From a virus (Duplodnaviria > Heunggongvirae > Uroviricota > Caudoviricetes): DNA of 16,949 nucleotides. The notes beneath the pieces are model-generated. The model did not search any database. It saw only the letters and a list, made by a program, of their open reading frames with translations, and was not told where the DNA came from. Positions 1,917-16,903 of the stretch are shown piece by piece. The stretch lies in the IMG/VR virus record IMGVR_UViG_2534681675_000024, one strand, 5' to 3'. Made by a program: the position numbers and the translations under genes. Positions within the stretch are counted from its first letter, which is position 1. Each line of letters opens with the position of its first letter.

Positions 1917-2273
1917 TCACTTTTCACGCCCCTCCAAAGCAATGGCGGGGCATTACCTGTTTACCCATCTCCACCAGCATAGATAATTCTCGCCCAGCTA
2001 TTGCTATATCTGTTCGGCTTAGTTCATCTGTAATCACCCCATCTCTAAAAGATACGCCAGCTATCATTAGCCATTTTAAGCCATCATGAGCCATTATAAA
2101 CCGACTCAACCAATTGAATAATAAAAGATAAAAAGAAATGTAAAAACATGATGAATGACGATGAAAGATATAACTCTTTGATAAAACAATGATTTTTTAA
2201 ACTGGTAACTAATTGAAAATAAAGAAAATAATTATCCCACCTGCATTTGCAATCTTTCAGTGGATCGGCATTT

Positions 2274-2306
2274 TTTCAATAGATTTATAATTTCTTTCAA
2301 TAGATT
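2274..2306 (+). promoter_or_regulatory. Candidate promoter/operator upstream of alpA: TATAAT flanked by two TTTCAATAGATT direct repeats
   Basis: The 12-bp motif TTTCAATAGATT occurs at 2274-2285 and 2295-2306 (21-bp spacing), bracketing a perfect TATAAT hexamer at 2286-2291, about 95 bp upstream of the alpA ATG. No good -35 hexamer is evident. Confidence 0.4.
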
Positions 2307-2386
2307 CTAGTCTTAATAGAAATACTGTATGGGCAACCACTAAACTTTAAGTAACTTCATGAGCTATCAGAGAGGTTACTAGAGAT

Positions 2387-2605
2387 ATGACAGCACACAA
2401 GCCAGCATCATCAGCTATCCCAACAACTGGATACATCCGTCGCTTTCGCATGCCGGAATTGCTAGGTGTTTCACTGCCTACTATTGATAGATGGGTTAAA
2501 AATGGCACTCTTCCACGCCCAGTGAAGCTAACAGATAACGTGACTGCGTTTGATGCGGTGGAAATTAATAACTGGCTGGCAGAACGCCGCGGGAAGGTGG
2601 CCTGA
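2387..2605 (+). CDS. alpA: AlpA-family helix-turn-helix transcriptional regulator (phage excisionase/activator-like)
   Basis: 72-aa ORF with the AlpA-type HTH segment RMPELLGVSLPTIDRWVKNGTLPRPVKL. Its stop overlaps the next gene's start (TGATG). Position just downstream of int is typical of AlpA in P4-like and PICI-like elements. Confidence 0.85.
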   Translation: MTAHKPASSAIPTTGYIRRFRMPELLGVSLPTIDRWVKNGTLPRPVKLTDNVTAFDAVEINNWLAERRGKVA

Positions 2606-3036
2606 TGGAAAAGAAAAACCGCCCATTACAGGCGGCTAATTCAGATATTCGCGTATCTGATATTACGCCCCTTACAAAATCCCTTCAAGCACCAAAGCGC
2701 ACACCGAAAAAGCATCGTGCCCGAGTCTATATGCTGCGTACTGGTATAGAGGGATGGACAGAAAATGACATTCTTCGCTACTGCCGTCTGTCTTCTGGTC
2801 GTAACTATGCAACAGAGTTAGAACGCCAGCTTGGAATCACTCTGGAGCGTATCGACGAAAAGAATCCTGATGGTATCGGAACACACCTTCGCTACCGTTT
2901 CTCCTGCCGTGGTGATGTTCTGAAAGTGATCACTCATGTTAACCATCTTGCGAGCATAAATGATCACAACGGACTTTCTCAGCAGGAAATTGCCGACATT
3001 CTGAAACTCTACCCGGACGCGTTTAACGCCGCCTAA
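2605..3036 (+). CDS. Hypothetical protein (143 aa), basic N-terminus, co-transcribed with alpA
   Basis: Start is translationally coupled to the alpA stop. Composition looks protein-like and the N-terminal region is basic (KRTPKKHRARVY). No recognisable domain. Confidence 0.65.
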   Translation: MEKKNRPLQAANSDIRVSDITPLTKSLQAPKRTPKKHRARVYMLRTGIEGWTENDILRYCRLSSGRNYATELERQLGITLERIDEKNPDGIGTHLRYRFSCRGDVLKVITHVNHLASINDHNGLSQQEIADILKLYPDAFNAA

Positions 3037-3048
3037 CGGAGACTGAAA

Positions 3049-3882
3049 ATGAACATCGAAAAAAGCAGATTAATTTCTGAGGCCGCCCCTCATCTGAACG
3101 CCTCTCTGGGCACAATTAACGGTAATGAATTTGCCGCAATTGTCCCGGTTATTCCTGGTCATATCGGTGGGCGTGAAACCAATATTGTTAGCGCAAAAGC
3201 GTTACACAAAGCGTTGGGCGTGGGAAAAGACTTCTCTACATGGATCACTGATCGCATCTCTGAATATGACTTCACCATTGGGCACGATTACTCAGTCCAT
3301 AAAACAATTTCCCCAAATTTGGGGAAAAGCCCGAATGGCGCGGCTTACAGCAAGATTAAGCACTCTGGCAGACCCGGCAAAGACTATCTGTTAAGTGTCG
3401 GAATGGCGAAAGAACTGGCAATGATCGAACGCAATGATCAGGGTCGCGCTATCCGTCGTTATTTCATCCAGTGCGAGGAAGAATTACAGCGTACCGTGCC
3501 TGAAATCGCCGCCCGCTATCGTCGCCAGCTAAAAGCCCGTATCAGTGCCGCAAACAACTTTAAGCCAATGTGCGATGCGCTGAACATGGCCCGTGCCGAG
3601 CAGGGGAAAACGACGCAGCAACACCACTACACAAACGAGAGCAATATGATTTCTCGTATCGTTCTTGGTGGGCTAACTGCTAAGCAGTGGGCGCGGATAA
3701 ATGGCTATTCTGGCGAACCTCGCGACCATATGAACGCAGAACAGCTTGAACACCTCTCATATCTCGAAAGCACCAATATCACGTTAATTGATATGGGCAT
3801 GGAATATGAGCAGCGCAAAGGAGAACTCACCCGCCTGTCGCAACGCTGGCTCGCCAAGCGTCTGGAGGCGGTCCATGTTTAA
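3049..3882 (+). CDS. Phage antirepressor-like protein (AntA/AntB-type N-terminal domain, Rha/KilAC-like C-terminal region)
   Basis: 277-aa ORF with GGAG about 8 nt upstream. The N-terminal segment SAKALHKALGVGKDFSTWITDRISEYDFTIGHDY matches the AntA-type antirepressor signature. The central segment YLLSVGMAKELAMIERNDQGRAIRRYFIQCEE resembles KilAC/Rha-type regulatory domains. Confidence 0.78.
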   Translation: MNIEKSRLISEAAPHLNASLGTINGNEFAAIVPVIPGHIGGRETNIVSAKALHKALGVGKDFSTWITDRISEYDFTIGHDYSVHKTISPNLGKSPNGAAYSKIKHSGRPGKDYLLSVGMAKELAMIERNDQGRAIRRYFIQCEEELQRTVPEIAARYRRQLKARISAANNFKPMCDALNMARAEQGKTTQQHHYTNESNMISRIVLGGLTAKQWARINGYSGEPRDHMNAEQLEHLSYLESTNITLIDMGMEYEQRKGELTRLSQRWLAKRLEAVHV

Positions 3883-4054
3883 GCCGACAGGAACACCACA
3901 ACCACAAAAACGCTACAAAGATGCCCACGGAGCACTCGTTACTGTCGAAAGCGTGTCTCACAACCGAGTGACGTTTTATCGCGACGGGTATCAATCGCCA
4001 TGCGTACAACCGCTGGCGCGTTTCATGAAGGAGTTCGCGGAGGTTAACCAATGA
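3875..4054 (+). CDS. Small hypothetical protein (59 aa)
   Basis: ATG at 3875 overlaps the antirepressor stop (ATGTTTAA), and its own stop overlaps the ATG at 4051. No domain recognised. Confidence 0.45.
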   Translation: MFKPTGTPQPQKRYKDAHGALVTVESVSHNRVTFYRDGYQSPCVQPLARFMKEFAEVNQ

Positions 4055-5082
4055 TACCCGTCCAGAAGAAGACATTTTCACTGGCTGGTATGTCTCCAAA
4101 ATCCAGCAATATGACGGCAAAGTCAGGCATTAATACAGCAGATACAAGCAAAGTTTATCATTTGCTGGTGGTCGGAACGGATGCCTTAACCATGCCAGAA
4201 ATCTCGGGCGATGATATTAGCGTTGAGAAGGTCAGCGGCTGCGCCAGAGAATTTCTGGTCGTAGATGACCTGTTCTGCTCGCGTAGTGACTCCACAAAAA
4301 TCTTCGTCCACGCGCGTGACGTTAACGAAATGAGCGCGATGTACTGTGCTTCTGGTGCTTCCAATAGCGAGTTTTCGGAGTCCATAAAAAAGAGCTTGCC
4401 GTTATGCGGCAACACGGTTTATGGTTATAAGGCACCTCATAAAACGGGTGCCGGGATTGGCCTCCCGCTGGAGTTATCGGCGATACATGACGCGCCAGCG
4501 TCTTTTTTTGTATCGGCGCACACGCACACCTTATCAATGGTGGGCTGTATGGGGCTACCTTCGGGTAGGCTGGTTTCCGATAACGCCAGTAAGGCCAACT
4601 CCGTACAGTCCACCGCCAGCAAGATTGGTCTCTTCTGCGGTGGTTATAACAAGCCAACGTTATCGGAGGATGCCACATGCTGGCTACTACCCCTACCCAA
4701 AAACCGCAATTTATCTGGATTATCGCCGCAGTTCGCCGCGATTGCCCGACAATTACCGCCAAAATTCATCATATTGCTGCCGAGTCTGAACGCGATGCTC
4801 GCCGTTCTCTGGTGCGCGATCACGTCTGCTTTTTTGCTGGTCGTATCCGCATGGAGGTGGCACATGATTAAAACCTACGATGTGCATATGGACCCCCTCG
4901 AACGCACAAGCCAGATCATCACACTGACAGAAGTGATTAATGACATTCTGGTGAGCAACTCTCCCTCACGAGACGAAAAACTGAAGGCGTTACTCGCGAT
5001 ATTGGATCTCGCCGTTCGTGACGTTCATTTCCTGCTGGAAGGTGGCGAAATGCCAGTAAAACGGGGGGCAACCAATGAATAA
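4051..5082 (+). CDS. Uncertain long ORF (343 codons); possibly several short genes or a partly non-coding leader
   Basis: The frame is open for 343 codons and has a good SD (GGAGG, 7 nt before ATG 4051). However, the first ~270 residues are unusually Ser/Cys/Trp-rich, the frame contains a terminator-like hairpin plus T7 run (4489-4509), and two internal starts have strong SDs: 4677 in another frame (GGAGGA) and 4864 in-frame (GGAGGTGG). Confidence 0.35.
4489..4509 (+). terminator. Terminator-like hairpin (GACGC-GCCA-GCGTC) followed by T7
   Basis: A 5-bp GC stem with a 4-nt loop is followed immediately by TTTTTTT. The stem is short, so function is uncertain. It lies inside the dubious 4051-5082 ORF. 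Confidence 0.3.
4864..5082 (+). CDS. Small hypothetical protein (72 aa), alternative in-frame start within the 4051-5082 ORF
   Basis: A strong SD (GGAGGTGG, 4853-4860) sits 3 nt before ATG 4864. The downstream sequence has ordinary helical-protein composition, and its stop overlaps the next start (ATGAATAA at 5075). Confidence 0.4.
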   Translation: MIKTYDVHMDPLERTSQIITLTEVINDILVSNSPSRDEKLKALLAILDLAVRDVHFLLEGGEMPVKRGATNE

Positions 5083-5269
5083 CTCAATTAATACCCCTCG
5101 CCTTACGTCCGCACTTCAATTAATCGAGCAAGCAGCGGCTGTCCTGGTTGCTGTCAGTCTTTCGGCTGAAGAAATGGACGCTACTGATGTCGTGGATGCG
5201 ATTAAAGCGTGCTCATCTTTGGTTAACGATGCCCGTGCAGAGCTGGTAATTCTTGGGGGTGAAAAATGA
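5075..5269 (+). CDS. Small hypothetical protein (64 aa)
   Basis: G-rich SD-like stretch upstream. Overlaps the upstream stop and the downstream start (ATGA at 5266). Ala/Leu-rich helical composition. Confidence 0.55.
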   Translation: MNNSINTPRLTSALQLIEQAAAVLVAVSLSAEEMDATDVVDAIKACSSLVNDARAELVILGGEK

Positions 5270-5529
5270 ATATCAACTTAATTTATCGTCATCCGTGTGA
5301 GCTGGAAATTGAATCATTGCTGAGCCGTGAAGAGCCATATCCAGACACATTCACTCTTGCAGATCGCACGACTGAACGGCTTACCAGAGCGCGCACAGGT
5401 CTGGTTCATGTGATGAATGAGATTCTTCCATCGGTGGGAGGGGAACAGGCGACAGTAATCACTAGCTGGCTACAAAAAGTTACCTCTCTGATAGATATCA
5501 GTTTAATCGATGCGGAGAGTGCGAAATGA
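5266..5529 (+). CDS. Small hypothetical protein (87 aa)
   Basis: SD GGGGGTGA before ATG 5266; ATGA overlaps at both ends (translational coupling). Confidence 0.6.
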   Translation: MNINLIYRHPCELEIESLLSREEPYPDTFTLADRTTERLTRARTGLVHVMNEILPSVGGEQATVITSWLQKVTSLIDISLIDAESAK

Positions 5530-5747
5530 CCAACATCCAGCTCATCGAAGCGCAATGTCGCATCGAACAGGTTCAGACTGTTTTAGGGTTCTGGCTTGAA
5601 GGGGCCAGCCCCAGCAACAGAGACAAGTTAATGATTGGCGCGGTTATGTCACTGCTCAATGGCGTACCAGAAGCTATTCAGGAAGCGGACGAATTGTTGG
5701 GCAAATATGAGTTACAGAATCATTCAGGCGAGGCGAAACATGAATAA
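5526..5747 (+). CDS. Small hypothetical protein (73 aa)
   Basis: Coupled to its neighbours at both ends (ATGA overlap upstream, ATGAATAA overlap downstream). N-terminus (MTNIQLIEAQ) resembles that of the 5075 ORF ([20 protein letters not shown]), suggesting possible paralogy. Confidence 0.6.
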   Translation: MTNIQLIEAQCRIEQVQTVLGFWLEGASPSNRDKLMIGAVMSLLNGVPEAIQEADELLGKYELQNHSGEAKHE

Positions 5748-6342
5748 TTTCTTAACATTCCATGCAGAAGCAACGCCTGACGGCGTAAACATCATGCACC
5801 GCAGCAACGATGGCATGACAGAACGCGTTGAGACCGTCTCATATATTGATGCCGTAAATCGTCTGGATGCCGGGGATTATGACGATAAACCAGATGAAGG
5901 CATGTTTATACATCTCGCTATTGCCAGTGGCGGCAACCAGGGATATTTCGATTACACATCACAGCATCACGTGATTATGTGGCGCTGGCTGATAGCAACA
6001 GCATTCATCAATGAAATGAGAAAGGAAAACGGCACCGTCAGCATTATTGATGACAGTGGCAATCATTCCGTGGTTTCTGTTTATTCCAATGGCATCGTCG
6101 CCATGCCGCTGTATCCAGTAGCAGAGCGCCTCGCTATGGCAAACAACATTGAGGGCGCAATGATCGAGAAATATGGTGTTGATGTCGGAACAAAGAATGC
6201 CATCATTTTTTACAGCAACATGTTCGATGTCGAACAGGGAGCACTCACTTCGTTTGGGCGAGAAGTGCTTGCCGATCTTCACAACAGCTTTATTGCCGAA
6301 CTAAACGAAAACGGCATCCCAGAAGCACCAGTGACGCACTAA
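5740..6342 (+). CDS. Hypothetical protein (200 aa), immediately upstream of the primase
   Basis: ATG 5740 overlaps the upstream stop (ATGAATAA). The ORF track's longer 5635 start is probably an over-extension. No domain recognised. Confidence 0.65.
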   Translation: MNNFLTFHAEATPDGVNIMHRSNDGMTERVETVSYIDAVNRLDAGDYDDKPDEGMFIHLAIASGGNQGYFDYTSQHHVIMWRWLIATAFINEMRKENGTVSIIDDSGNHSVVSVYSNGIVAMPLYPVAERLAMANNIEGAMIEKYGVDVGTKNAIIFYSNMFDVEQGALTSFGREVLADLHNSFIAELNENGIPEAPVTH

Positions 6343-6354
6343 ACGGGGGCCAGA

Positions 6355-8706
6355 ATGCGAAACATTGATCTTATCCGTCAGGTTATCAGTGCGTCTGAAA
6401 ACAACTGGCCTCATGTGCTGGGCTGTCTGAACATAAATGTCCCTGACTCTCCGCGCCGTCATGCTCCCTGCCCTGCATGTGGGGGCAAAGATCGATTCCG
6501 GTTCGACGACAACGGGCGCGGTAGCTTCATCTGTAATCAGTGCGGCGCTGGTGATGGGCTGGATTTAATTAAACGCGTAAATAACTGCGACACAACAGAG
6601 GCGGCGCTTCTTGCCGCTGATGTTCTGGGTATTGATTACCGGACAACGGAAACACCAGAAGCCACCAGCCAGAAACGGGAACAACTGGAAACCGAGCGCC
6701 AGCGACGCGAACAGGAGCGCCTGAAAAGGGCAGAGAAGGACGAACAACAAAGACGGGATACGTTTTCCCGTCAGTTTGATGACATGCGCAGAAAGGCTGT
6801 AAACGGCAAATCTGATTATCTGGTTGCGAAAGGGGTAGGTGATTTTACATTCCCCGTGTTGCCAGATGGATCTCTGTTGCTGGCGCTGGTGGATAAATCC
6901 GGCGCAGTCACAGCAGCACAGACTATTACCTCACATGGTGAAAAAAGACTCCTGACAGGTTCAGCAAAGCGGGGGGCGTATCACGCCATAAACGCACAGA
7001 AACGACCTCACAGCATCATAATTGCTGAGGGTGTGGCTACCGCCCTGTCGTGCCATTTAATTCGCCCTGACGCAATGACAGTGGCAGCAATCGACGCTGG
7101 CAACCTGTTGCCAGTAGCGGAAGTCATGCGCAGAACATATCCACAGGCACAAATCATCATTGCCGCAGATAACGATCACCAGCAAGGAAACTCCGAAAGT
7201 GGAGGGATCAACACGGGGAAAGATGCCGCAGAGAGGGCCGCTATTTCCGTAGCTGGCTGGGTGTCTCTGCCACCGACTGACTATAAAGCCGACTGGAACG
7301 ACTATCACCAACAACACGGGCTGGCGGCAGCCACAGCAGCATTTAAAGATTCGATGTACCAGCCACGGGGGAAAGGGGCGCAGGTGAAAAATCACAAACA
7401 GTCAGTCGGGGCGCTTAATGAGATCAGTTCTGGCGAGGTGTTAAGCGATGATGAAATTGCTGTCCTCAAAGAAATCAACCGGACGTTTACGCATGTCACC
7501 ATCGGCGGGAAACACAAGGTGGTGTCGCTAAAGCCTTCTCAAACCGGCGGTGTATCGCACGTTTTCGAGGATTTATCACAATTTCAGCATTATTTTCATC
7601 ATAAACCGAGAGTCGCCAGAAAGCTGGCGGGATCGGCGTGGCTGTCATGGAGTGGGAAGAACTACAAGCCAGGAGGCGTAGGATTTTATCCAGTACCAGA
7701 CAAATGCCCTGACGATGTTTTTAATCTGTATGAGGGGCTGGCACTGGAACCAATTGAAGGAGATTGCACGGTATACCTTAATCACCTGTTGCAGGTTGTC
7801 TGTGCCGGTAATGAAGAGGCATACCAATATCTTATCCAGTGGATGGCGCACATTATCCAAAAGCCTGATGAAAAACCGTCCGTGGCAATCGTGATGAAAT
7901 CTGTCCCGGGCACAGGGAAAGGCACAACGGTTAAACCGCTGCTGCAAATACTGGGGCAGTACGCCGCCCACATTAACGGGGCGGGACATATTTCAGGGCG
8001 CTTCAATTCAATACTTGCTAACAAGCTACTGGTATTTGCTGACGAAGTGACGATCCACAAGCCGTCTGAAGCTGACAGACTTAAAGCGATTATTAGCGAA
8101 CCGACGTTTAACCTTGAGCGCAAGGGAATTGATGCTGAACCAATGCCGAATTTTGCCCGGTTGATATTTGCCAGTAACAGCACACAGGTATTACAGGCGG
8201 GGATAAGAGAGCGCCGCTATCTCGTGCTTGAGCCATCTCCTGAAAAAGCACAGAGCCGGGAGTATTTTGATCGGCTGTACAGTTGGCTTAATGATGGCGG
8301 TGCCGCAAAGTTGCTTTGGCATCTTAAAGGGGTGGATCTCTCAGGTTTTGACCCTCAACGAGCGCCACAGACCGATGCCTTACGTGAAGAAATCTTGCTG
8401 GGGCTGTCTGGCGTTGAATTGTTTCTTTATGGCGAGCTAATCAATGAACCTCCGTTTAATGGCGAAGTCCGTTTGTTTGCAAAGGATATGGTTAGTCGAT
8501 TTGTAGCGTGGTCGCTTGAGCGTGGGGAAAAGCTTAAAGAGCCAGCAGCCAGATCACTACTGGGTAAATCACTTGCACAAATGGGGCTGGTGAAGCATGG
8601 AAGACCAGACCGAGGGAATGGCGTGTTCTACGAACTACCAGAGGTCGGAGTTCTACAGGCTGCGTTTGCCCGTCTGATCGGTATGGGGGGTTATGATGTT
8701 TTTTAA
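6355..8706 (+). CDS. Replicative primase-helicase (zinc-finger + Toprim primase domain, C-terminal P-loop NTPase; P4 alpha / D5-like)
   Basis: 783-aa ORF with a G-rich SD. It has an N-terminal zinc-binding pair (CPACGG ... CNQCG), a Toprim-like acidic core (IIIAEGVATALS and AADNDHQQGN), and a C-terminal Walker A-like loop (VPGTGKGTT) with a Walker B-like hhhhDE (LLVFADEV). Size is close to P4 alpha. Confidence 0.9.
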   Translation: MRNIDLIRQVISASENNWPHVLGCLNINVPDSPRRHAPCPACGGKDRFRFDDNGRGSFICNQCGAGDGLDLIKRVNNCDTTEAALLAADVLGIDYRTTETPEATSQKREQLETERQRREQERLKRAEKDEQQRRDTFSRQFDDMRRKAVNGKSDYLVAKGVGDFTFPVLPDGSLLLALVDKSGAVTAAQTITSHGEKRLLTGSAKRGAYHAINAQKRPHSIIIAEGVATALSCHLIRPDAMTVAAIDAGNLLPVAEVMRRTYPQAQIIIAADNDHQQGNSESGGINTGKDAAERAAISVAGWVSLPPTDYKADWNDYHQQHGLAAATAAFKDSMYQPRGKGAQVKNHKQSVGALNEISSGEVLSDDEIAVLKEINRTFTHVTIGGKHKVVSLKPSQTGGVSHVFEDLSQFQHYFHHKPRVARKLAGSAWLSWSGKNYKPGGVGFYPVPDKCPDDVFNLYEGLALEPIEGDCTVYLNHLLQVVCAGNEEAYQYLIQWMAHIIQKPDEKPSVAIVMKSVPGTGKGTTVKPLLQILGQYAAHINGAGHISGRFNSILANKLLVFADEVTIHKPSEADRLKAIISEPTFNLERKGIDAEPMPNFARLIFASNSTQVLQAGIRERRYLVLEPSPEKAQSREYFDRLYSWLNDGGAAKLLWHLKGVDLSGFDPQRAPQTDALREEILLGLSGVELFLYGELINEPPFNGEVRLFAKDMVSRFVAWSLERGEKLKEPAARSLLGKSLAQMGLVKHGRPDRGNGVFYELPEVGVLQAAFARLIGMGGYDVF

Positions 8707-8730
8707 TATAGTCTTTTTACAAGAAGATCG

Positions 8731-8840
8731 TTTTTACCTGTACCACCTATACCACTTTGCTAATTCAGTATTAAAAACAGTGCGTTATAGTGGTACAGGT
8801 CAATATCTTACCTATACCAGACCTGTACCACCTATACCAT
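8731..8840. repeat. Iteron-like repeat cluster 1, immediately 3' of the primase-helicase gene (candidate ori)
   Basis: CCTGTACCACCTATACCA occurs at 8737-8754 and 8822-8839. An inverted copy TGGTACAGGT lies at 8791-8800 and an extra CCTATACCA at 8811-8819. The same core family recurs in cluster 2. Confidence 0.6.
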
Positions 8841-8882
8841 TAACAAACGCATTTCTTCTGGCTGGCTGAGAGGAAACAACCA

Positions 8883-9113
8883 ATGATGAGCACACCATTT
8901 TACAAAGTGCGCCAGTTAGCTTCTTCCTCTGGCTGGCAGCTGCGGTTTGAGGGGCGTTCAGACTGGCTACCCATTGCGGCATGGGCGAATGTTGAAATGT
9001 GTATTGACGGCGATACCGTTGAAATCATTATTCCCTGCGTGGCAAGTCGGGACGGCTGTATAGAGCCAACAGATATGGCAGCAGAAATCAGAGAGGTAAA
9101 ACATGAACAATAA
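8883..9113 (+). CDS. Small hypothetical protein (76 aa)
   Basis: SD GAGAGGA upstream of ATG 8883; its stop overlaps the next gene's start. No domain recognised. Confidence 0.6.
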   Translation: MMSTPFYKVRQLASSSGWQLRFEGRSDWLPIAAWANVEMCIDGDTVEIIIPCVASRDGCIEPTDMAAEIREVKHEQ

Positions 9114-9840
9114 CTATTGCATACCGCAGGGAATGACCAGAACGGAGCGCGAAGAATTAAAAAGTTTCGCTACACAGTGCGGGAATGCTGGCGACATCCA
9201 AAGTCTGGAACGCACTTTAATTATGATTGCGCACTGGATGCGTCAGGGGCAAAGGGTTTCATTTACTGAATATGCCAGCCAGTGGACAGAGGCACAGCGC
9301 GAACGGAGCGACGGTAATCACTCAACACCCGAAATGGCGAAGCAATGGCCTTTCAGTGGTAAACGCTGTATCAGTCCCGGTGGTTCAGATTATTACCCTG
9401 CTGGTGTGGGAGATGAGCCATGTTGTGACGAGACTGAAATCCGCCACGCAGTGACAGTAATTACCGCTGAATACCCACAATTTAACCTTGACGGACTGGC
9501 GCTCCACAACCGGAATGCGGACTGGGAAAACCCGCTTGATAACCCGTCATTTATCGTATCGGCGAAAAGCTGCCTGAGATGGATCAGAGACAACGGGATG
9601 AGTAATGCCCAGATTGAGAGCTTCCCGCAGGATAACCCCACATCTGACACGTTGAAGCATGAAGTGGAGCGATATAACCAGATAAACCACCAGCACAGTG
9701 ATCACCCGCACTATATCCCCAACGGAGCATTTATTGCGGCGATGGTGGCAAGCGGCTACAAGGTTAAGCCAGCGGGAAGAATGAACGCATTTTTCAATAT
9801 TTCAAAAAAGGGATTATGTGCTGCTATGGGTAAAAATTAA
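9103..9840 (+). CDS. Hypothetical protein (245 aa)
   Basis: SD GAGAGG before ATG 9103, coupled to the upstream gene. Protein-like composition, no recognisable domain. Confidence 0.7.
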   Translation: MNNNYCIPQGMTRTEREELKSFATQCGNAGDIQSLERTLIMIAHWMRQGQRVSFTEYASQWTEAQRERSDGNHSTPEMAKQWPFSGKRCISPGGSDYYPAGVGDEPCCDETEIRHAVTVITAEYPQFNLDGLALHNRNADWENPLDNPSFIVSAKSCLRWIRDNGMSNAQIESFPQDNPTSDTLKHEVERYNQINHQHSDHPHYIPNGAFIAAMVASGYKVKPAGRMNAFFNISKKGLCAAMGKN

Positions 9841-9845
9841 ATAAA

Positions 9846-9949
9846 TGGTACAGGTCTGTACAGGTGGGGAGAGGTCATTTTTACCCACCTGTACCACCTA
9901 CAGGCCGCGTCACACAAGGGTTTGTGACATGGTGGTACAGGTGGTACAG
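9846..9949. repeat. Iteron-like repeat cluster 2 (same family as cluster 1) plus a GTCACA-N8-TGTGAC palindrome
   Basis: TGGTACAGGT at 9846-9855, CTGTACAGGTGG at 9856-9867, ACCTGTACCACCTA at 9887-9900, and tandem inverted GGTGGTACAGGTGGTACAG at 9931-9949. A palindrome GTCACACAAGGGTTTGTGAC lies at 9909-9928. TTTTTACC precedes the repeat in both clusters. Confidence 0.6.
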
Positions 9950-10314
9950 CAAAAACAGCGATTTTCTTTATAAGGTATGTTTTGCTCATCTGGCAGGCGG
10001 AGGTATTCGCTGCGGTTTGGCACATAGCCCAGAACAGCAAAGAGTTTTACGAGACTTTTGTAAAATCCAGTGTACAAGGGCGTGACGTTTTTGAAGGAGA
10101 GACCTACGAAATTTTCGTAGTTCAAAAAATAGCCTCTGAGATGTTGTTATGCCTGTTCAGCAAACCATCCGCATAGCTGATCGCGAATCAAATTACCAAT
10201 GGAGCCAGAAGCAAGGGCAGAACTGGAAAGCGCCTGCCGTGAAGAGTAATGCGACATCGTAAATATAGTTTTTAGAGTCCATAAAAAACCTGTCAAAACC
10301 TGACATACAGAACG

Positions 10315-10347
10315 ATGCCACCAGCTACTGAGCGGTGGCATTTTTTT
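10315..10347 (+). terminator. Rho-independent terminator
   Basis: An 8-bp stem (ATGCCACC / GGTGGCAT) with an 11-nt loop is followed by TTTTTTT. Confidence 0.7.
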
Positions 10348-10391
10348 GTGCTATTTGTTTCATATTTTGCAATCACAATGATGAATGTTGC

Positions 10392-10433
10392 GTTTTATGA
10401 AACTATAATGACTGTTGTTTTATACAGTTATAA
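10392..10433 (+). promoter_or_regulatory. Candidate promoter/operator for the 10443-14192 operon
   Basis: Two imperfect 17-bp direct repeats (GTTTTATGAAACTATAA at 10392-10408 and GTTTTATACAGTTATAA at 10417-10433) overlap a TATAAT hexamer at 10404-10409. No good -35 is seen. Confidence 0.3.
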
Positions 10434-10442
10434 GGGGGCGTT

Positions 10443-10616
10443 ATGGCTATTTCAGTAAAGCCAGTATTGATAAGTGAGAAGCAAATGGAAGCGATAAAGA
10501 AAATTCAGGAGGAGCAGCGTAAAAAATCAGAGGTAGGAGTTGCGCCAACGATCCACGAAATTGCTCGGGGATTAATGGATAAGGCGCTGGCTTACACTTT
10601 AACTGGACGTGGGTAA
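10443..10616 (+). CDS. Small hypothetical protein (57 aa), first gene of a three-gene operon
   Basis: Not in the supplied ORF track (below its length threshold). ATG 10443 is preceded by a strong SD (AAGGGGG). The stop at 10614-10616 lies 4 nt before the next ATG (10621). Helical composition; a regulatory role is only a guess. Confidence 0.5.
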
Positions 10617-10620
10617 ATTT

Positions 10621-12087
10621 ATGGCTACTTGGCAACAAGGAATCAACTCAGGCGGTTTTCTGGCTGGCATCGGTACGCAAAATGAGAATGCGCCAAAGGC
10701 AAGCGACATTAACGCAACGCTTGGTCTGATCCGCGAAAACAATGAACTGGCTCGCTCAGGTGCAAATAACGTTGGTCTGACCGCGTTACGTGGTCTGGCT
10801 GGAGTTGCTGATATTTATAAGCAGGAACAGCAACAGAAAGCGATTAATGCGTTCAATAAGGTTCACGCTGATGCATGGGCTTCTGGTGATCCATCGGGAC
10901 TATTTAAGTTTGCCCAGGAAAATCCAGCGTTTGTTGCACAGGTACAACAGGCGTTTTCTGGTCTTAATGATCAGCAACGCAACGATATGGGCGATTTAGC
11001 CATGAGGGCTAACGTCGCTCTTTCTCAGGGACCGGAAGCCTACAGTAAATTCATTACTGACAACAAGGACAGGTTAAATCGCGTTGGTGCTAATGCTGAC
11101 TGGATGATTCAGACAGGTATCCAGAATCCAGAGCAGCTATCACACATGCTGACTACTATGTCTCTCGGTGCGCTTGGACCAGAAAAGGCGTTTGCTGTTC
11201 AGGATAAGATGGTTGGTCGTGAGATTGACCGAGGCCAGCTGGCAGAGACAATCCGCAGCAATAAGGCTGGAGAGGCACTTCAGGCGAGAGGGCAGGATAT
11301 TAGCCGAGCAAATGCGTTAACGTCAGCATATGCACCAACAGCCGCAATGCAGAATTACAATCAGTACGCGCAAATGTTAAAGGCGGACCCAGAGGGGGCG
11401 GCGGCATTTGCGGCAGCGGCTGGAATTAATACAAACGCCAAAAAATTAATGAGTGTTAGAGAAAACGATGATGGCACTGTCACAAAATACTACACAGACG
11501 GAAGTGAAGAGCAGGGAAAACTAAACCAGCCAATATCTGGAGATGGGTTTCGTCCAATAGCTTTGCCAACAGCCCAAAAGATCATGGAAAAGTCGCCAGA
11601 AGGGGCTAAAAAAGCTGCTGGATTTGCATACAGGGTTAGGGATGCTCTTGATTCAATAGATACACTGAAAGACCAGCTTAGCCCACAGCGAGTGGCGATC
11701 ATTAATAATGCTTTGGGTAATGGGACGCTGGCTAACTTAACGCTCAGCCCAGCAGAGCAGCAATACGTTGTTAATGCTAATGACGCAATAATGGCAATAC
11801 TCCGTCAGGAAACAGGGGCATCTATCCTACCAGCTGAAATGTCCAAATATTATCAAATGTATTTCCCTCAGCCTGGTGATTCCACAAAAACCATTGATAC
11901 CAAGCGCCGGAAGATGGAAAACCAGTTCAATTCGCTGAAAGCTGCTTCTGGTCGAGCTTATGATGCTTTGCGGGTTATTTCAGCAGTTGACAGAGGAACT
12001 TCTTCTTCGTCGCAGACATTGCCGCAATCTGAGCAGGTATCACAGCCAGCAGCCAGCAGTAATTTTTCTTCACTATGGGGTGATTAA
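10621..12087 (+). CDS. Large hypothetical protein (488 aa), Cys-free, Ala/Gln/Asn/Gly-rich, predicted mostly alpha-helical
   Basis: ATG 10621 chosen over the track's 10609. No Cys, few aromatics, Q/A-rich low-complexity stretches, and no enzymatic motif I can identify. Its stop overlaps the next start (TAATG). Confidence 0.8.
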
Positions 12088-14192
12088 TGGCTAAAGCATG
12101 GAAAGATGTTATCGCTTCTCCACAGTATCAGGCGTTAGCACCAGAACAAAAAGCGCAGGCTCAGGAGCAATACTTCAATGAAGTCGTGGCCCCGCAAGCC
12201 GGAGAAAGTGTAGAGCAGGCTAAGCAGGCTTTTTATGCTGCCTATCCACTACCATCAACGAATGAAATAAACCGATCCCAATCAGCAACTCAAAATATTC
12301 AACATACATCATCTGATAATTCTCTTGCGTCAGGGTATGCAAAGTTAGCTACTCAGCAAAGAGAGGGGCTTGAGCGTTCAGCAGAACAGGGAGCCAGTCT
12401 TGGGGCTGCGATGCGCGATGCTATAACAGGCGAAAGCCGAATGACTCCAGAGATGGAGAGACTGCAAAATGTCGACCTTGCCCCAGAGTTAACCTCACTC
12501 AGCATGGATGCTCTAAAAGCTCGATGGTCTCAACTTTTCGGCTCTGACGCATCTCAGGAAAAGATTCTTCAGAGCATGGGAGCGAAATTAAGGCAGGATG
12601 AGAAGGGTAACACTATCGTTTCCCTGCCATCCGGTGATTATGCTCTGAACAAGCCGGGTTTATCGCCGCAAGACGTGGCATCGTTTCTGGCTAATGCGCT
12701 GGCGTTTACACCAGCGGGCAGGGCTGGAACGGTGCTTGGTGCCATAGGAAAATCAGCAGCTACAGATTTAGCACTACAGGGAGCCACCAGCCTTGCTGGT
12801 GGAGAAGATATTGATCCGTTACAAACGGTAATTTCTGCTGGCATTGGTGGTATTGGTAAGGGGCTGGAAAATACAGCGAGTGCGGTTTCGAGGGCTGTTC
12901 GTGGTGATATGTCGCCTGAAGCAAAGGCTGCTGTCGACTTTGCATCGGAAAGAAATCTGCCGTTAATGACCAGTGACATGCTGAAAGATAAAACCTTTAT
13001 GCAGAGTCAGGCTCAGACATTAGGCGAAAGAGTTCCTTTTTTTGGAACCGGTAAGAATCGGCTGAATCAACAACAAGCACGAGAAAATTTAGTCAGAACA
13101 TTTAGCGATGGTCTGGGGGGAATTTCAGATAAACAGCTTTATGAGTCTGCGACTAAAGGGCAGCAAAAATTCATTGAGGCAGCAGGAAAGCGATATAACC
13201 GCATAATTGACGCTATGGGGGATACCCCTGTCGATCTCTCAAACACGGTAAAAACTATCGACAATCAGATTGCCGTGTTAAGCCGCCCTGGCAAATCTCA
13301 GGATAGAGCCGCGGTAAAAGTCTTGCAGCAATTTAAAGACGATATCACCAGCGGACCAAATGACCTGCGTCTGGCGAGGGAAAACAGAACCGATCTTCGA
13401 AAGCGATTTATAGCGTCATCTGACACTGTTGATAAAGATACGCTCCAGAAAGCCAGCGATATTATCTACAAGGCATATACGGCGGATATGAAAAAAGCCG
13501 TAGCCAAAAATCTTGGAGCAGACGAAGCCATTAATATGGCAAGGGTTGATCGCTCATGGTCTAAATTCAATGACATGATGGGAAGAACGCGCGTTCAAAA
13601 GGCAATAGCCAGCGGCAAGGCCACGCCTGAGGATGTAACAAAACTCGTTTTTAGCCAAAGCCCATCAGAACGTTCTCAGCTTTACAGGCTTCTGGATGAC
13701 AATGGTAGGCAAAACGCACGAGCAGCTATAGTTCAGAATGCTGTAGATAAGGCGACTGATCCGTCTGGAAATATCAGTGTTGAGAAGTTTATTAATGCGT
13801 TACACCGGAACAGGAAGCAATCAGCAACTTTCTTTAAAGGCGTACATGGAAAGGAACTGGACGGCGTTATTAAATACCTCAACGATACAAGACACGCGGC
13901 AAAAGCGAACGTTCAAAACTTAAATGGTCAGCAGCTTTATGGATTGTTAGTTGGTGGTGGCATCATAAACGCAGCAGTATTAGCGGGGATGCTAAAAACG
14001 GCTGCGTTTGTTGTTCCTGCTGCTGGTGCCGTAGGCGGAGCAGCGAAGGCATACGAAAGCCCTGTTATACGAAATGCCTTGTTACGTCTGGCAAATACGC
14101 CAAAAGGTAGCACAGCATATGACAGAGCGATCAGTACGGTCACACAATCGCTCACCAGAGTCGCACAGGCATCACAAAAAGAATCTCAATAA
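12087..14192 (+). CDS. Large hypothetical protein (701 aa), Cys-free, helical, with a C-terminal Gly/Ala-rich hydrophobic hairpin
   Basis: Long uninterrupted ORF coupled to the upstream gene. The segment LYGLLVGGGIINAAVLAGMLKTAAFVVPAAGAVGGAAKAY (about nt 13934-14056) looks like a membrane-insertion hairpin. GIGKG and GAIGKS do not fit true Walker A spacing. Confidence 0.85.
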   Translation: MAKAWKDVIASPQYQALAPEQKAQAQEQYFNEVVAPQAGESVEQAKQAFYAAYPLPSTNEINRSQSATQNIQHTSSDNSLASGYAKLATQQREGLERSAEQGASLGAAMRDAITGESRMTPEMERLQNVDLAPELTSLSMDALKARWSQLFGSDASQEKILQSMGAKLRQDEKGNTIVSLPSGDYALNKPGLSPQDVASFLANALAFTPAGRAGTVLGAIGKSAATDLALQGATSLAGGEDIDPLQTVISAGIGGIGKGLENTASAVSRAVRGDMSPEAKAAVDFASERNLPLMTSDMLKDKTFMQSQAQTLGERVPFFGTGKNRLNQQQARENLVRTFSDGLGGISDKQLYESATKGQQKFIEAAGKRYNRIIDAMGDTPVDLSNTVKTIDNQIAVLSRPGKSQDRAAVKVLQQFKDDITSGPNDLRLARENRTDLRKRFIASSDTVDKDTLQKASDIIYKAYTADMKKAVAKNLGADEAINMARVDRSWSKFNDMMGRTRVQKAIASGKATPEDVTKLVFSQSPSERSQLYRLLDDNGRQNARAAIVQNAVDKATDPSGNISVEKFINALHRNRKQSATFFKGVHGKELDGVIKYLNDTRHAAKANVQNLNGQQLYGLLVGGGIINAAVLAGMLKTAAFVVPAAGAVGGAAKAYESPVIRNALLRLANTPKGSTAYDRAISTVTQSLTRVAQASQKESQ

Positions 14193-14211
14193 CTGGTTAG
14201 CCATGGATGGC

Positions 14212-14826
14212 TTAAATATCTCTGCTGTCTCCATTAGGAAATAAAAGATAATATGGATTTGCCTTTCTTGCTCTCCTTGCTTCACCTGGATACCTGTTAG
14301 TCAGTAGCTTGCATAATGAGCAGAGAACAACACTCAAGAAAATTCCGAATGAGAAGATCAATATCTCACCAAAAATCAATGGCGATATTAAATTTTCAGG
14401 ATTTAATGATAAGTCAATGTTAAAAACATATTGAGCAATACCAGTAAGTATCAATAATATAATCCCTATGGAATACATTGCTGTTTCCCAAACATCAGAC
14501 AGTCTATTTTTGAATTTTTCGCTGGAGTAGTAGTTTGTTATAAAGTCAGAAAAATCACTCTCATATGCATCATCTTTAGGTGATGTTAGAAATCCTCTGT
14601 CTCTCCATACCTTCTCCCAATTAGTCGATTCTTTTTTTAAGGAAAAATAAATATGTATTGCCAAAAGGATAGCCAAAATTGGTGTTAGCTCTAAAAAATA
14701 GAATGTTATGGAATAAATAATACTGCCATGTTCAAACTCATCTGGGACTATCATGTATGCACAAAAATAAATTGAAAAGTACACCATGCAGATAGTTAGC
14801 AATTCTTTAGTATCTTTTCTGCTCAC
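14212..14826 (-). CDS. Integral membrane protein (about 204 aa, four predicted TM helices), strongly AT-rich
   Basis: Four hydrophobic stretches of about 20 residues each, with a basic C-terminal tail (RRARK). GTG start at 14826 is preceded by SD AAGGGGG; an alternative ATG is at 14787. The gene is markedly AT-rich relative to its neighbours and converges on the 701-aa gene with only 19 bp between stops. Confidence 0.8.
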   Translation of the reverse strand: MSRKDTKELLTICMVYFSIYFCAYMIVPDEFEHGSIIYSITFYFLELTPILAILLAIHIYFSLKKESTNWEKVWRDRGFLTSPKDDAYESDFSDFITNYYSSEKFKNRLSDVWETAMYSIGIILLILTGIAQYVFNIDLSLNPENLISPLIFGEILIFSFGIFLSVVLCSLCKLLTNRYPGEARRARKANPYYLLFPNGDSRDI

Positions 14827-15007
14827 ACCAACCCCCTTTAGCGTTGTTTAGAATGGCAATCATCATATATCCAAGACATGGCATTTGGTACATAGCTTGG
14901 GTCGGGATTTCAAATCCGCTCCCAGTTGATGGGGCCGTTACATTACGCGCATATCCGCTTTATGTGAAACAGGAAGATTTTTCTGATATCACTGCCACAG
15001 CAAACAC

Positions 15008-15036
15008 CAATTTCGTGACCAGTACGCGCGCGAGGG
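15008..15036 (+). repeat. Repeat family copy 1 (CAATTTCGTGACCAGTACGCGCGCGAGGG)
   Basis: About 29 nt with a CGCGCGCG core; matches copy 4 (16904-16933) at roughly 23 of 29 positions. Confidence 0.6.
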
Positions 15037-15041
15037 GTATC

Positions 15042-15063
15042 AGTTGCAAAAAATTTTGCAACT
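15042..15063. repeat. Near-perfect palindrome AGTTGCAAAAAATTTTGCAACT between repeat copies 1 and 2
   Basis: 9-bp arms GTTGCAAAA / TTTTGCAAC. A related palindrome GTGCAAATTTGCAC lies at 16746-16759. Confidence 0.5.
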
Positions 15064-15065
15064 AC

Positions 15066-15094
15066 GTCCGACCAGTACGCGCACGATGGAGGGG
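15066..15094 (+). repeat. Repeat family copy 2 (GACCAGTACGCGCACGATGGAGGGG)
   Basis: Shares GACCAGTACGCGC-CGA---GGGG with copy 1. Confidence 0.55.
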
Positions 15095-15295
15095 AGTACC
15101 ATAAAACTGTTCTCTACATGAGACAGAGTGGTGGTGATGTGTTGATTATCGGCGTATATGCGCACAGGACGCGCTATGACGATGTTTTATGCGGGTACAC
15201 CAATCACATGTATCTGGTGTGATAAATCGCGTTACATGACATCTCATGTTGTGCTGGTGATTATCACGACGTTCTGAATCTGGCCTTTGCCTGAT

Positions 15296-15322
15296 ATTTT
15301 GCGACAAGTACGCGCGCGTAGC
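15296..15322 (+). repeat. Repeat family copy 3 (TTTTGCGACAAGTACGCGCGCGTAGC)
   Basis: Same GAC-AGTACGCGCGCG core. A weaker partial copy (CATTTTGTGACCAATGCG) lies at about 15349-15366. Confidence 0.55.
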
Positions 15323-15346
15323 ATCAACAGCATACACATTGGATAT

Positions 15347-15547
15347 TCATTTTGTGACCAATGCGATAAGTAGCGGGATAAGAATTGATAAAATCAACAG
15401 GACGATGATCCACTTTTGATTCTCGTCCATCTTATCTGCTAGGCGACGCTCCATTCCGTGCATATCACCGCGAATGGCAATCATCTCATTGCGAACATCC
15501 GAGAAGTGGTTGGCTTGATGTTCAATGTGTGGCGTTCTGCCTTTCAT
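15347..15547 (-). CDS. Small C-terminally anchored membrane protein (66 aa), XhlA/holin-like topology
   Basis: ATG at 15547 with SD GAGGA about 7 nt upstream. Polar, charged N-terminal half followed by a single C-terminal TM helix (WIIVLLILSILIPLLIALV). The family call is tentative. Confidence 0.6.
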   Translation of the reverse strand: MKGRTPHIEHQANHFSDVRNEMIAIRGDMHGMERRLADKMDENQKWIIVLLILSILIPLLIALVTK

Positions 15548-15626
15548 GTCTGATCCTCACCTATCGTCACCACCTGCTGGTGTATAAAGGTATTAGCCCA
15601 AGCAGCTTTCCAATGGGCACTCATGT

Positions 15627-16082
15627 TTATACGCTGACCTTACAATCAATCACCGCTTTTAACTTTTCAGCATTGCTTCCCTGACGCTTCCACGCGCTGT
15701 AAATATCTTTATCCCACGCTTTACCAGCTTTTGTTTGATAGCCTGCTTCATTGATCCGTTCAGCTATCACACGCCCATTATCAAATCCCTGTTGGATGGT
15801 ATCGGCAATGATCTTTATAACTGCCGTTTCGTTATATGGTTTTGGTGGGATGTTCGGCTTTCCGGCAATAAGCGACGCAGCGGCTTTTTCCATGCGCTCC
15901 ACCAGCCCAAGCATTCGTGAATCAATAGACTTTTCCGGCTGCCCCAGCTTCATGCGAATCGCATCAACAAGCCAAGAGGTTTTATCTCCTCCAGAAGCGA
16001 GAACAGACCGATTAAACTCATCCTGCAATTCAGATGGGATGCGGAACGCGATCAGATTAGATTTGCTCATTGCAAAGACCAT
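15627..16082 (-). CDS. Ribbon-helix-helix (Arc/CopG-like) DNA-binding protein with a C-terminal recombinase-like helical domain (151 aa)
   Basis: The N-terminus has a classic RHH pattern (LIAFRIPSELQDEFNRSVLASGGDKTSWLVDAIRMKL). The C-terminal segment GRVIAERINEAGYQTKAGKAWDKDIYSAWKR resembles the recombinase-domain motif of serine recombinases, but there is no catalytic domain. Start could be 16082 or 16070; no clear SD. Confidence 0.7.
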   Translation of the reverse strand: MVFAMSKSNLIAFRIPSELQDEFNRSVLASGGDKTSWLVDAIRMKLGQPEKSIDSRMLGLVERMEKAAASLIAGKPNIPPKPYNETAVIKIIADTIQQGFDNGRVIAERINEAGYQTKAGKAWDKDIYSAWKRQGSNAEKLKAVIDCKVSV

Positions 16083-16183
16083 ATCAGTGAGTAATATCCA
16101 TACAGTATACCACTGTATAACACTGTTATACGCTCAAATATCAGCCAGAAAATAACAGACCAATCACAAATCTATCGCTGTGT

Positions 16184-16306
16184 TGTTGGTTCAGAGCTGG
16201 GCTGTGTTGGTTCAAAATGAGTTGATGTTGGTTCAATATTTTAGAAAAAACACAATAAAAACAACGCTCTTTACAAATTGAACCAACTGAACCAACTGAA
16301 CCAACA
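16184..16306. promoter_or_regulatory. Operator/iteron array: three TGTTGGTTCA direct repeats at 21-bp spacing plus three tandem inverted TGAACCAAC copies
   Basis: Direct copies at 16184-16193, 16205-16214 and 16226-16235. After an AT-rich spacer, TGAACCAAC repeats sit at 16279-16287, 16288-16296 and 16297-16305. A TATAAT hexamer at 16323-16328 and SD GAGAGG precede the perC-like ATG. Confidence 0.7.
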
Positions 16307-16341
16307 CCTTTTTGCTTATCTATATAATCTGAGAGGCAGAA

Positions 16342-16629
16342 ATGATAAAGGACAGGAAAGCTGAAGAGCTGGAGTCAAAAGGGCTATACCGGAGAGCTGC
16401 CGCGCGATGGGCAGAAGTCATGATGCTGGCAGATGGCGATAAAGAACGTGAACATGCAGCAAACAGACGCTCTGAATGTATCCGTAAGGCGGCACGCCCA
16501 CCAGCAACTACAGACAGATTCGGAGATTTAAGACAGGCAGTTAAGCGGACTCATTCGGCTCTTGGTATGGATGAGGAAGCGAGAGGGTACTTCAGGCGTT
16601 ATCGCGATAAAGATTGCCAGAGACAGTAA
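16342..16629 (+). CDS. PerC-family transcriptional regulator-like protein (95 aa)
   Basis: Size and the N-terminal motif ESKGLYRRAAARWAEVM resemble PerC/Pch-family regulators known from EPEC/EHEC plasmids and prophages. TATAAT and an SD lie upstream. Confidence 0.7.
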   Translation: MIKDRKAEELESKGLYRRAAARWAEVMMLADGDKEREHAANRRSECIRKAARPPATTDRFGDLRQAVKRTHSALGMDEEARGYFRRYRDKDCQRQ

Positions 16630-16903
16630 TGCTCTCTCTGTTTTGGCAAATTACCCCTCACTTTGAAGGGATCGGAGCTATAAAAATGGTGTTATCCGGC
16701 TTCCTCAAATTGAGGATTGTGGAAGAATCAATGGGTTAGGTCATCGTGCAAATTTGCACTCTGCCAGCCAACGCAATTTCTCGTTGGCGGAAATATCAGG
16801 TATTTACTGAACGAACGGTCTACCAGTCTGTTCAGTTACCAGTTGCACATGGCTGTTTCATGTGAGAACGGAGGTTTTTTTCGGACATCGCTATTGGGTA
16901 CAG

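Follow-up and report, generated by a model that had tools for sequence, protein, structure and literature searches.

A probable SieA-family superinfection-exclusion gene in an EcCIMP1-like satellite of P22-like phages

SieA is among the oldest known superinfection-exclusion systems, and its mechanism was resolved only in 2024. The SieA protein of phage P22 resides in the inner membrane and blocks both DNA injection and K+ release, the mutations by which P22 escapes it lie in the C-terminal regions of gene products (gp) 16 and 20, and a high multiplicity of infection partly overcomes the exclusion (PMC10883804). The exclusion of P22-like phages was demonstrated experimentally for the SieA proteins of both P22 and the Escherichia coli prophage HS1 (Leavitt et al., mBio 2024, PMC10883804). 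The same work described a conserved cytoplasmic motif near the C-terminus (FxRYPxEAxxFNK), assigned three transmembrane (TM) segments to type A and four TM segments with a cytoplasmic N-terminus to types B and C, and reported sieA in P22-like prophages only and, within E. coli, no types other than A and B. In this study, we analyzed a gene on the minus strand at positions 14212–14826 of a stretch of 16,949 nucleotides (IMG/VR record IMGVR_UViG_2534681675_000024; the whole stretch is referred to as the window), which sequence comparison places, with good support, in a divergent part of the SieA family of superinfection-exclusion genes and which is called here the sieA-like gene.

The second described system that bears on this locus is EcCIMP1, a phage-inducible chromosomal island (PICI) of E. 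coli MP1, for which Kapi1, a P22-like phage, serves as the inducing and transducing helper (Pick, Stadel and Raivio 2025, PMC11773190). Helper-induced excision and transfer were demonstrated for EcCIMP1 with Kapi1 only, and the island confers an added superinfection immunity, with superinfection altered in lysogens only; the authors obtained negative results for it with PADLOC and DefenseFinder and did not mention SieA (PMC11773190). For the sieA-like gene of the window, family membership, a predicted topology, synteny and cassette behavior were established in the present analysis.

The sieA-like gene and its kinship with SieA

The gene comprises the following features, all on the minus strand.

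14212–14826, minus strand: sieA-like coding sequence, 204 amino acids (from translation of the open reading frame (ORF), BLASTP, phrog_7745, hhalign, and hydropathy and charge)
14827–14898, minus strand: 5' leader with the ribosome-binding site AAGGGGG at 14832–14838 (from the sequence and alignment A7)
14494–14529, minus strand: family motif 1, residues 100–111, YSSEKFKNRLSD (alignments A2, A5 and A9)
14263–14298, minus strand: family motif 2 (RYPGEA...K), residues 177–188, NRYPGEARRARK, the counterpart of the SieA motif FxRYPxEAxxFNK

The ORF starts with GTG at 14824–14826, separated by a spacer of 5 nt from the Shine-Dalgarno sequence, and an identical ORF in other E. coli genomes is entered in RefSeq as a hypothetical protein (WP_000087355.1). 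It converges with a gene of the P22 gene-16 type across a gap of 19 bp, compared with 22 bp in P22; as it thus lies in the sieA slot next to gene 16, its identity as SieA was tested further by sequence. BLASTP gave 29% identity over 108 amino acids with P22 SieA (E = 6e-8) and 34% over 118 amino acids with HS1 SieA (E = 2e-9), and both alignments end on the RYPGEA motif. The sole PHROG match of the protein was phrog_7745, "superinfection exclusion SieA-like" (E = 2e-4), which was also the only PHROG match for three of the four subfamily relatives tested and was matched by HS1 SieA at 6.5e-21. When the subfamily profile was compared with a type A SieA profile by hhalign, the probability was 96.9% (E = 1.7e-10) over 99 columns. 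A profile search with the protein and its close homologues among 1.84 billion representative proteins returned 43 proteins at E <= 1e-3, about 30 of which, with lengths of 160–205 amino acids and both motifs present, were aligned in A5; a further search with the A5 profile recovered relatives of which many bear the name "superinfection exclusion protein A" or have PF26849 assigned. In the precomputed Pfam annotation, PF26849.1 is assigned to SieA of types A and B and to many environmental relatives. Searches with Pfam, NCBIfam and PADLOC gave noise only, with no PADLOC match at E <= 0.1; the Pfam copy that was scanned is without PF26849 and left P22 SieA unmatched as well, and no PADLOC model detects P22 SieA either.

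The residues shared with SieA are concentrated in the two motifs. In motif 1 (YSSE..NR.SD), N107, R108 and D111 are invariant or nearly so in alignments A2, A5 and A9, and the pattern S.E...NR..D is common to the sieA-like protein and SieA. Residues 176–188, which include motif 2, read TNRYPGEARRARK and retain the RYPxEA core and the last K of the published SieA motif; R178 and P180 are invariant, and A183 is nearly so, in the 35-sequence family alignment A5, in which SieA of P22 and SieA of HS1 are included, and R178, Y179, P180, A183 and K188 are all invariant in the 42-sequence alignment A9. Hydropathy analysis indicated four hydrophobic segments (residues ~9–27, 37–61, 114–137 and 149–172), and the numbers of lysine plus arginine residues in the five successive soluble segments were 3, 0, 9, 0 and 7. 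The protein is predicted from these segments to be a multi-pass membrane protein with four TM segments, and the charge distribution gives an N-in/C-in topology, with both termini and the long middle loop in the cytoplasm; four TM segments with the N-terminus inside agree with the published description of SieA types B and C. Motif 1 would be located just ahead of TM3 and motif 2 past TM4, both on the cytoplasmic side.

A preliminary description of this stretch, made from the letters alone, had portrayed the gene as sharply AT-rich, as lying on the opposite strand to everything upstream and as encoding a multi-pass membrane protein, for which superinfection exclusion was one of several roles listed. 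Its account of the strand and the membrane protein held, with all long ORFs within 1–14192 on the plus strand and the four hydrophobic segments given above, and the match to the SieA family points to superinfection exclusion among the listed roles. Its statement that nothing in the sequence identifies which role applies has to be withdrawn in view of the SieA motifs, the matches to SieA of both P22 and HS1, and the sieA position by gene 16. The base composition was also as described: the guanine-plus-cytosine (GC) content of the ORF was 0.327, with 0.30 at third codon positions (GC3), against a mean of 0.469 (standard deviation, 0.04) for 615-bp windows across the 16.9 kb, so that the gene had a z of -3.57 in this sliding-window comparison. 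An equally low GC was found in just 0.04% of all 615-bp windows, the overall minimum being at 14203, and the genes flanking the sieA-like gene had a GC of 0.47–0.48. The sieA genes of P22 and HS1 have a similarly low GC of 0.337 and 0.363, respectively, next to gene 16 with 0.47–0.50. Low GC is thus a family trait of the sieA moron and, because P22 and HS1 sieA are just as AT-rich, was rejected as specific evidence of a recent foreign insertion.

In the region of 14000–16500, a terminator scan found none, and the RNA fold of the 520-nt region upstream of the sieA-like gene was not significant (z = -1.07). A tRNA-like stretch at ~14900–14930 was considered and dropped, there being no tRNA present.

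Of 5426 complete E. coli genomes, 103 carried the gene; the ORF was full-length in 102 of the 103, and the E. coli copies were all at least 99% identical. Other close relatives are few and are present in Citrobacter freundii (50% identity), Serratia fonticola (39%) and Providencia, Proteus and Morganella, in which proteins of 195–198 amino acids are 30–33% identical across the full length. The homologues from Citrobacter, P. alcalifaciens and Serratia, which are 33–50% identical, reside within true P22-like prophages in the canonical sieA slot, the order being coat ... gp14, gp7, gp20, gp16, the convergent sieA-like gene, a small ORF, mnt, arc, ant and tailspike. Between the window and the Citrobacter P22-like prophage, the gp16 proteins are 76% identical and the SieA-like proteins just 50%. 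Among 50,697 phage genomes, tblastn with the protein gave no match even at E <= 1, so that no sequenced phage isolate in this collection carries the clade, and a scan of the species-representative genomes of GTDB with the subfamily alignment gave 38 pattern sites, 0 of which were confirmed. Because Providencia, Morganella and Proteus are the genera of type C, the clade probably represents either a deeply branching part of type C or an additional, fourth SieA type, the equation with type C being drawn from taxonomy and length.

Insertion sequence (IS) elements were observed beside the gene in two loci: IS21 interrupts gp20 in the Citrobacter prophage (L004, 12653–15951), and IS66 interrupts gp16 in E. 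coli 214-4 (L015, 4337–8982). As the adjoining sieA-like gene is intact in both, it is suggested to be retained for its own sake. Three variants from short contigs (P0004, P0006 and P0106) have a sieA-like ORF that is cut short or runs on into sequence from elsewhere in the island, as in P0006, in which residues 1–74 are fused to the frame of window positions 16562–16666; these may be rearrangements or assembly artefacts. There are also natural gp16-SieA fusions, namely P0035 (430 amino acids, Aeromonas salmonicida) and P0025 (277 amino acids, metagenomic), in which a periplasm-targeted copy of the gp16 N-terminal motif, 63% and 49% identical, respectively, to residues 1–54 of the window gp16, continues into a SieA-like membrane domain. 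These "Rosetta-stone" fusions, which appear to link the two families functionally, suggest direct interplay of SieA and gp16 or a decoy mechanism.

The cassette slot and the carrier island

The gene order of the window is integrase, helix-turn-helix (HTH) protein, AntA, DUF4222, Ash, P4-alpha-like primase, gp20 and gp16, followed farther on by a PerC-like gene. By Pfam and PHROG, gp20 and gp16 are the only virion genes, and capsid, tail, tailspike and lysis genes are absent.

12087–14192, plus strand: P22 gene-16-type ejection (DNA transfer) protein, 701 amino acids (phrog_770 and others)
10609–12087, plus strand: P22 gene-20-type ejection protein, 492 amino acids (PF16928 Inj_translocase, E = 3.6e-118; phrog_917)

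The DNA identity to EcCIMP1 of MP1 was 93.7% over 2595–6340, 87% over 6355–7376 and 96.5% over 14899–15325. Judged from gene content and these identities, the carrier is an EcCIMP1-like PICI, a satellite of P22-like phages, and not a prophage. The five E. coli contexts that were inspected are likewise all PICIs without capsid, tail or tailspike genes; each has gp20/gp16 genes of its own, accompanied in some by gp14 and gp7, and these five are integrated at yicC/dinD or by the tRNA-Thr gene beside proA. In the window island, gp14 (DUF2824) and gp7 are absent, whereas they are present in sister islands (window 10591–11294 compared with L001 13535–14667). Over its first 684 bp, the gp20 gene shares 96.8% identity with that of HS1, a full P22-like prophage, which indicates recent recombination between satellite and prophage. 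In all cases examined by Leavitt et al., sieA lies between genes 16 and 9 of a P22-like prophage; this location, which describes the distribution of sieA and not the protein, was not seen for the window or the five E. coli loci. As sieA has been known from P22-like prophages only and a literature search found no paper connecting SieA with PICIs, the satellite context of the SieA family appears to be unreported so far. The defense-island setting that the preliminary description had envisaged was inexact, the actual carrier being a PICI satellite of P22-like phages.

In islands of which the gp16 is 98–99% identical to that of the window, an unrelated cargo gene occupies the same place in the same orientation. 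The slot, its flank and the alternative cargos are as follows.

14199–14212: palindrome AGCCAT-GG-ATGGCT (AGCCATGGATGGCT) between the convergent gene 16 and sieA-like gene (from the sequence and alignment A8)
14899–15325: non-coding flank of the slot, also in EcCIMP1 (96.5% identity to EcCIMP1 of MP1)
L013, 4576–4965 (sister island): alternative cargo, a multi-pass membrane protein of 129 amino acids
L012, 4528–4965 (sister island): alternative cargo, a secreted protein of 145 amino acids with a signal peptide (phrog_2651)
L010, 12632–13330 (EcCIMP1 of MP1): alternative cargo, a lipoprotein of 232 amino acids

The homology with the islands carrying other cargo stops on the left at 14212, the stop codon of the cargo (alignment A8), and breaks on the right at ~14834, inside the Shine-Dalgarno sequence, from which the leader outward is conserved in those islands (alignment A7). 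From these breaks, the slot behind gene 16 can be described as a fixed expression slot in which cargo is replaced ORF for ORF. Separate acquisition of the sieA-like gene, as had been proposed in the preliminary description, is upheld by this ORF-exact swap, which spans the interval from the stop of gene 16 to the conserved ribosome-binding site beside a gene 16 of 98–99% identity, and not by low GC alone. Comparison with PADLOC and PHROG assigned no known function to the 129-, 145- and 232-amino acid cargos. The unexplained superinfection immunity of EcCIMP1 has a candidate gene in that for the lipoprotein.

The 427-bp flank at 14899–15325 was conserved at 95–99% in 545 of 5426 complete E. coli genomes, in which it is never annotated, and the leader of the slot is conserved along with it in these 545 genomes. 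It contains three copies of the repeat GAC(C/A)AGTACGCGC(G/A)CG, at 15017, 15070 and 15303, and a perfect palindrome at 15042–15063 (AGTTGCAAAA/TTTTGCAACT). Possible roles of the flank are those of a pac-like site, of a set of operators or iterons, or of a region holding the slot promoter.

Beyond the sieA-like gene, there are two smaller ORFs on the minus strand. The one at 15347–15547 encodes 66 amino acids with a C-terminal TM segment (phrog_6324) and occupies a second variable spot ~0.5 kb past the slot (window 15325–15660 compared with L001 19325–20697), at which L001, L008 and L013 carry an Abi-family gene. The other, at 15627–16082, encodes 151 amino acids, has an N-terminus (SNLIAFRIPSELQDEFNR) that resembles ribbon-helix-helix repressors of the Arc/Mnt type, gave a weak match to phrog_30270 (E = 3.7e-4) and no Pfam match, and lies, relative to the sieA-like gene, in the position of mnt in P22.

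Elsewhere in the island, Rfam matches above the gathering score were obtained on the plus strand for isrK (4432–4508, 64 bits) and C4 antisense RNA (4533–4620, 77 bits), both within the Ash-family ORF at 4051–5082; the region of 4432–4620 thus has the appearance of an antisense immunity module of the P1/P4 type within the regulatory part of the island. A second AT-rich trough at ~1900–2400, with a GC of 0.31 at 2001–2400, is mostly without a long ORF and lies between the ORF at 1266–1916 (phrog_30524) and the HTH gene at 2387. The stretch of 1242–2509 is absent from the sister island L001.

Proposed function and rival explanations

The sieA-like protein, as a divergent member of the SieA family, probably acts at the inner membrane to keep out the DNA of P22-like phages, a function that would very probably be ordinary for the family. 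We infer its expression, its inner-membrane location and its exclusion of P22-like phages from the findings given above. The protein would be made from the integrated island and inserted in the inner membrane by its four helices, with the N-terminus, a 52-residue loop (YSSE..NR.SD) and the C-terminal tail (RYPGEA...K) facing the cytoplasm. It would then, in analogy to the type A SieA of P22 and the type B SieA of HS1, stop the DNA of P22-like podophages from crossing the inner membrane by interfering with the assembly or the function of the conduit of injected gp20 and gp16 or with a host membrane partner of that conduit; adsorption would be unaffected and the cell would not be killed. Since both conserved motifs are predicted to be cytoplasmic, the critical contacts would lie at the cytoplasmic face.

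Several points weigh against this reading. The likeness to SieA is limited to the C-terminal half (residues ~80–190), the N-terminal 80 residues being subfamily-specific, and the published SieA motif is only partly kept, with T in place of F and ARK in place of FNK. The precomputed annotation gives no PF26849 for P0001, P0002 and P0003, among which are the sieA-like protein of the window and its Citrobacter homologue. The AlphaFold2 model built from the 42-sequence alignment is of low confidence (predicted local distance difference test (pLDDT) 65, predicted template modeling score (pTM) 0.55), its helices agreeing at this confidence with the four predicted TM segments, and Foldseek found no match below E = 1 in BFVD. 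A scan of 14000–16500 for a minus-strand promoter upstream of the gene found no sigma-70 consensus, and its expression is therefore presumptive. Furthermore, a satellite reliant on a P22-like helper might be expected to spare that helper. The sieA-like gene as the source of the published EcCIMP1 immunity was rejected, because the EcCIMP1 slot holds the lipoprotein gene.

One rival explanation is that the protein is a satellite-specific factor, which would act to the benefit of the island on the ejection proteins of the helper or of the island itself during induction, for example, by biasing which gp16/gp20 variants work, by blocking re-entry of helper particles into cells that bear the satellite or by preventing self-superinfection by satellite particles, and not as an exclusion protein that protects the host. 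Consistent with this, all five inspected E. coli contexts are PICIs with their own gp20/gp16, EcCIMP1 is mobilized by Kapi1 with superinfection changed in lysogens only, and P22 sieA is upregulated during induction. However, the subfamily is also found in ordinary P22-like prophages with no satellite involved, and, because unrelated genes fill the slot beside a near-identical gp16 (98–99%), the sieA-like gene is not an obligatory partner of the ejection proteins of the island; we thus regard a satellite-specific role as unlikely. The missing promoter consensus bears on another explanation, in which the gene has no function and is a moron, either decaying or unexpressed, that a P22-like phage passed to the island as a mere passenger of the gene-16 module. 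The high identity among the E. coli copies (at least 99%), which holds little information on selection, the truncated and chimeric variants (P0004, P0006 and P0106) and the lack of gp14 and gp7 in the window island itself point in the same direction. This explanation is nevertheless quite improbable, considering that the ORF is full-length in 102 of the 103 genomes, that it has a strong ribosome-binding site with a leader conserved across the cassette variants, that the family motifs are conserved between genera at 30–50% identity, and that the gene is intact where IS elements hit its neighbors.

An abortive-infection (Abi) or otherwise toxic membrane effector of the holin-like or RexB-like kind, which would depolarize or kill the infected cell, was also considered, as the product is a small multi-pass membrane protein on a mobile element, sister islands carry an Abi-family gene ~0.9 kb past the slot, and overproduction of P22 SieA slows growth. 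The protein matched no PADLOC, Abi or holin family, however; its specific likeness is to SieA, single-copy SieA is nearly without growth cost, and SieA blocks the release of K+ instead of causing leakage, all of which makes an effector of this kind most improbable. Inner-membrane exclusion of P22-like phages by a divergent SieA thus remains our preferred account of the gene.

As for the slot as a whole, it is conceivable, if rather doubtful, that in EcCIMP1-like satellites it is a dedicated expression site, with a conserved leader, ribosome-binding site and palindrome, for swapped envelope proteins (the SieA-like protein with four TM segments and the cargos of 129, 145 and 232 amino acids), each of which would exclude the entry of P22-like phages. 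Just as tentatively, the slot and the island gp20/gp16 might form an "entry and exclusion" module in which the slot gene would be the cause of EcCIMP1 immunity. If this were true, the gp16-SieA fusions would indicate direct contact of SieA with gp16, possibly as a decoy.

This study brings to light a deeply divergent SieA clade that is missed by current Pfam, RefSeq annotation and defense finders, and suggests that a satellite of P22-like helpers can carry the entry-exclusion gene of the helper family itself, as far as its predicted function is concerned. The slot is shared by at least three other candidate envelope factors, and the "novel defence mechanism" of EcCIMP1, so far unexplained, is given concrete candidates. 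In the set of naturally diverged SieA sequences obtained here, the few residues that are invariant (N107, R108, D111, R178, P180 and A183) can serve as targets for dissecting the block of the gp20/gp16 conduit. The island context offers an explanation, direct and open to testing, of how satellites could encode superinfection immunity, together with new candidate exclusion genes.

Comparison with described systems

P22 SieA, of type A, is likewise encoded by an AT-rich moron that is convergent with gene 16 and ~20 bp from it (Hofer et al. 1995; Leavitt et al. 2024, PMC10883804). Both proteins are helical proteins of the inner membrane, as predicted for that of the window, with S.E...NR..D and RYPGEA...K in common and 29% identity in the C-terminal half. 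They differ in that P22 SieA has 164 amino acids and 3 TM segments, compared with 204 amino acids and 4 TM segments, in that the N-terminal 80 residues are unrelated, and in that the motif of the sieA-like protein is without the F and the FN. The surroundings differ as well: P22 is a complete prophage in which sieA is followed by mnt-arc-ant and the tailspike gene, whereas the window island is without tailspike, capsid and lysis genes.

HS1 SieA, of type B (the gene in the sieA position of NC_009800, taken as EcHS_A0321), was the best pairwise match among the SieA proteins tested and shares the extra N-terminal TM segment, the cytoplasmic N-terminus and the host species, although global identity is ~17–24% and its gene lies in a full P22-like prophage. 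Type C SieA, with MU9_2893 and HMPREF1563_1315 as reference sequences, is known from Providencia, Morganella and Proteus (Leavitt et al.), and the nearest relatives of the sieA-like protein beyond Escherichia, Citrobacter and Serratia come from the same genera. These relatives carry, as type C does, an N-terminal extension of ~40 amino acids with an extra TM segment, and the P. alcalifaciens copies are in the sieA slot, but the group from E. coli, Citrobacter and Serratia is only ~30% identical to them.

Among satellites, EcCIMP1 has other alleles of gp20/gp16, its gp16 having 906 amino acids and being annotated as a lytic transglycosylase domain protein, and its slot holds the gene for the 232-amino acid lipoprotein, on the strand of gene 16, in place of the sieA-like gene. 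The window island, for its part, has another integrase and integration site (yicC/dinD in L001) and is without gp14 and gp7. Despite these differences, the two islands share the AlpA-like HTH protein, AntA, DUF4222, Ash, small ORFs and the primase in a common backbone with 87–94% DNA identity, and the flank at 14899–15325 and the PerC-like gene are present in both, with PerC-type PHROGs matched in the window.

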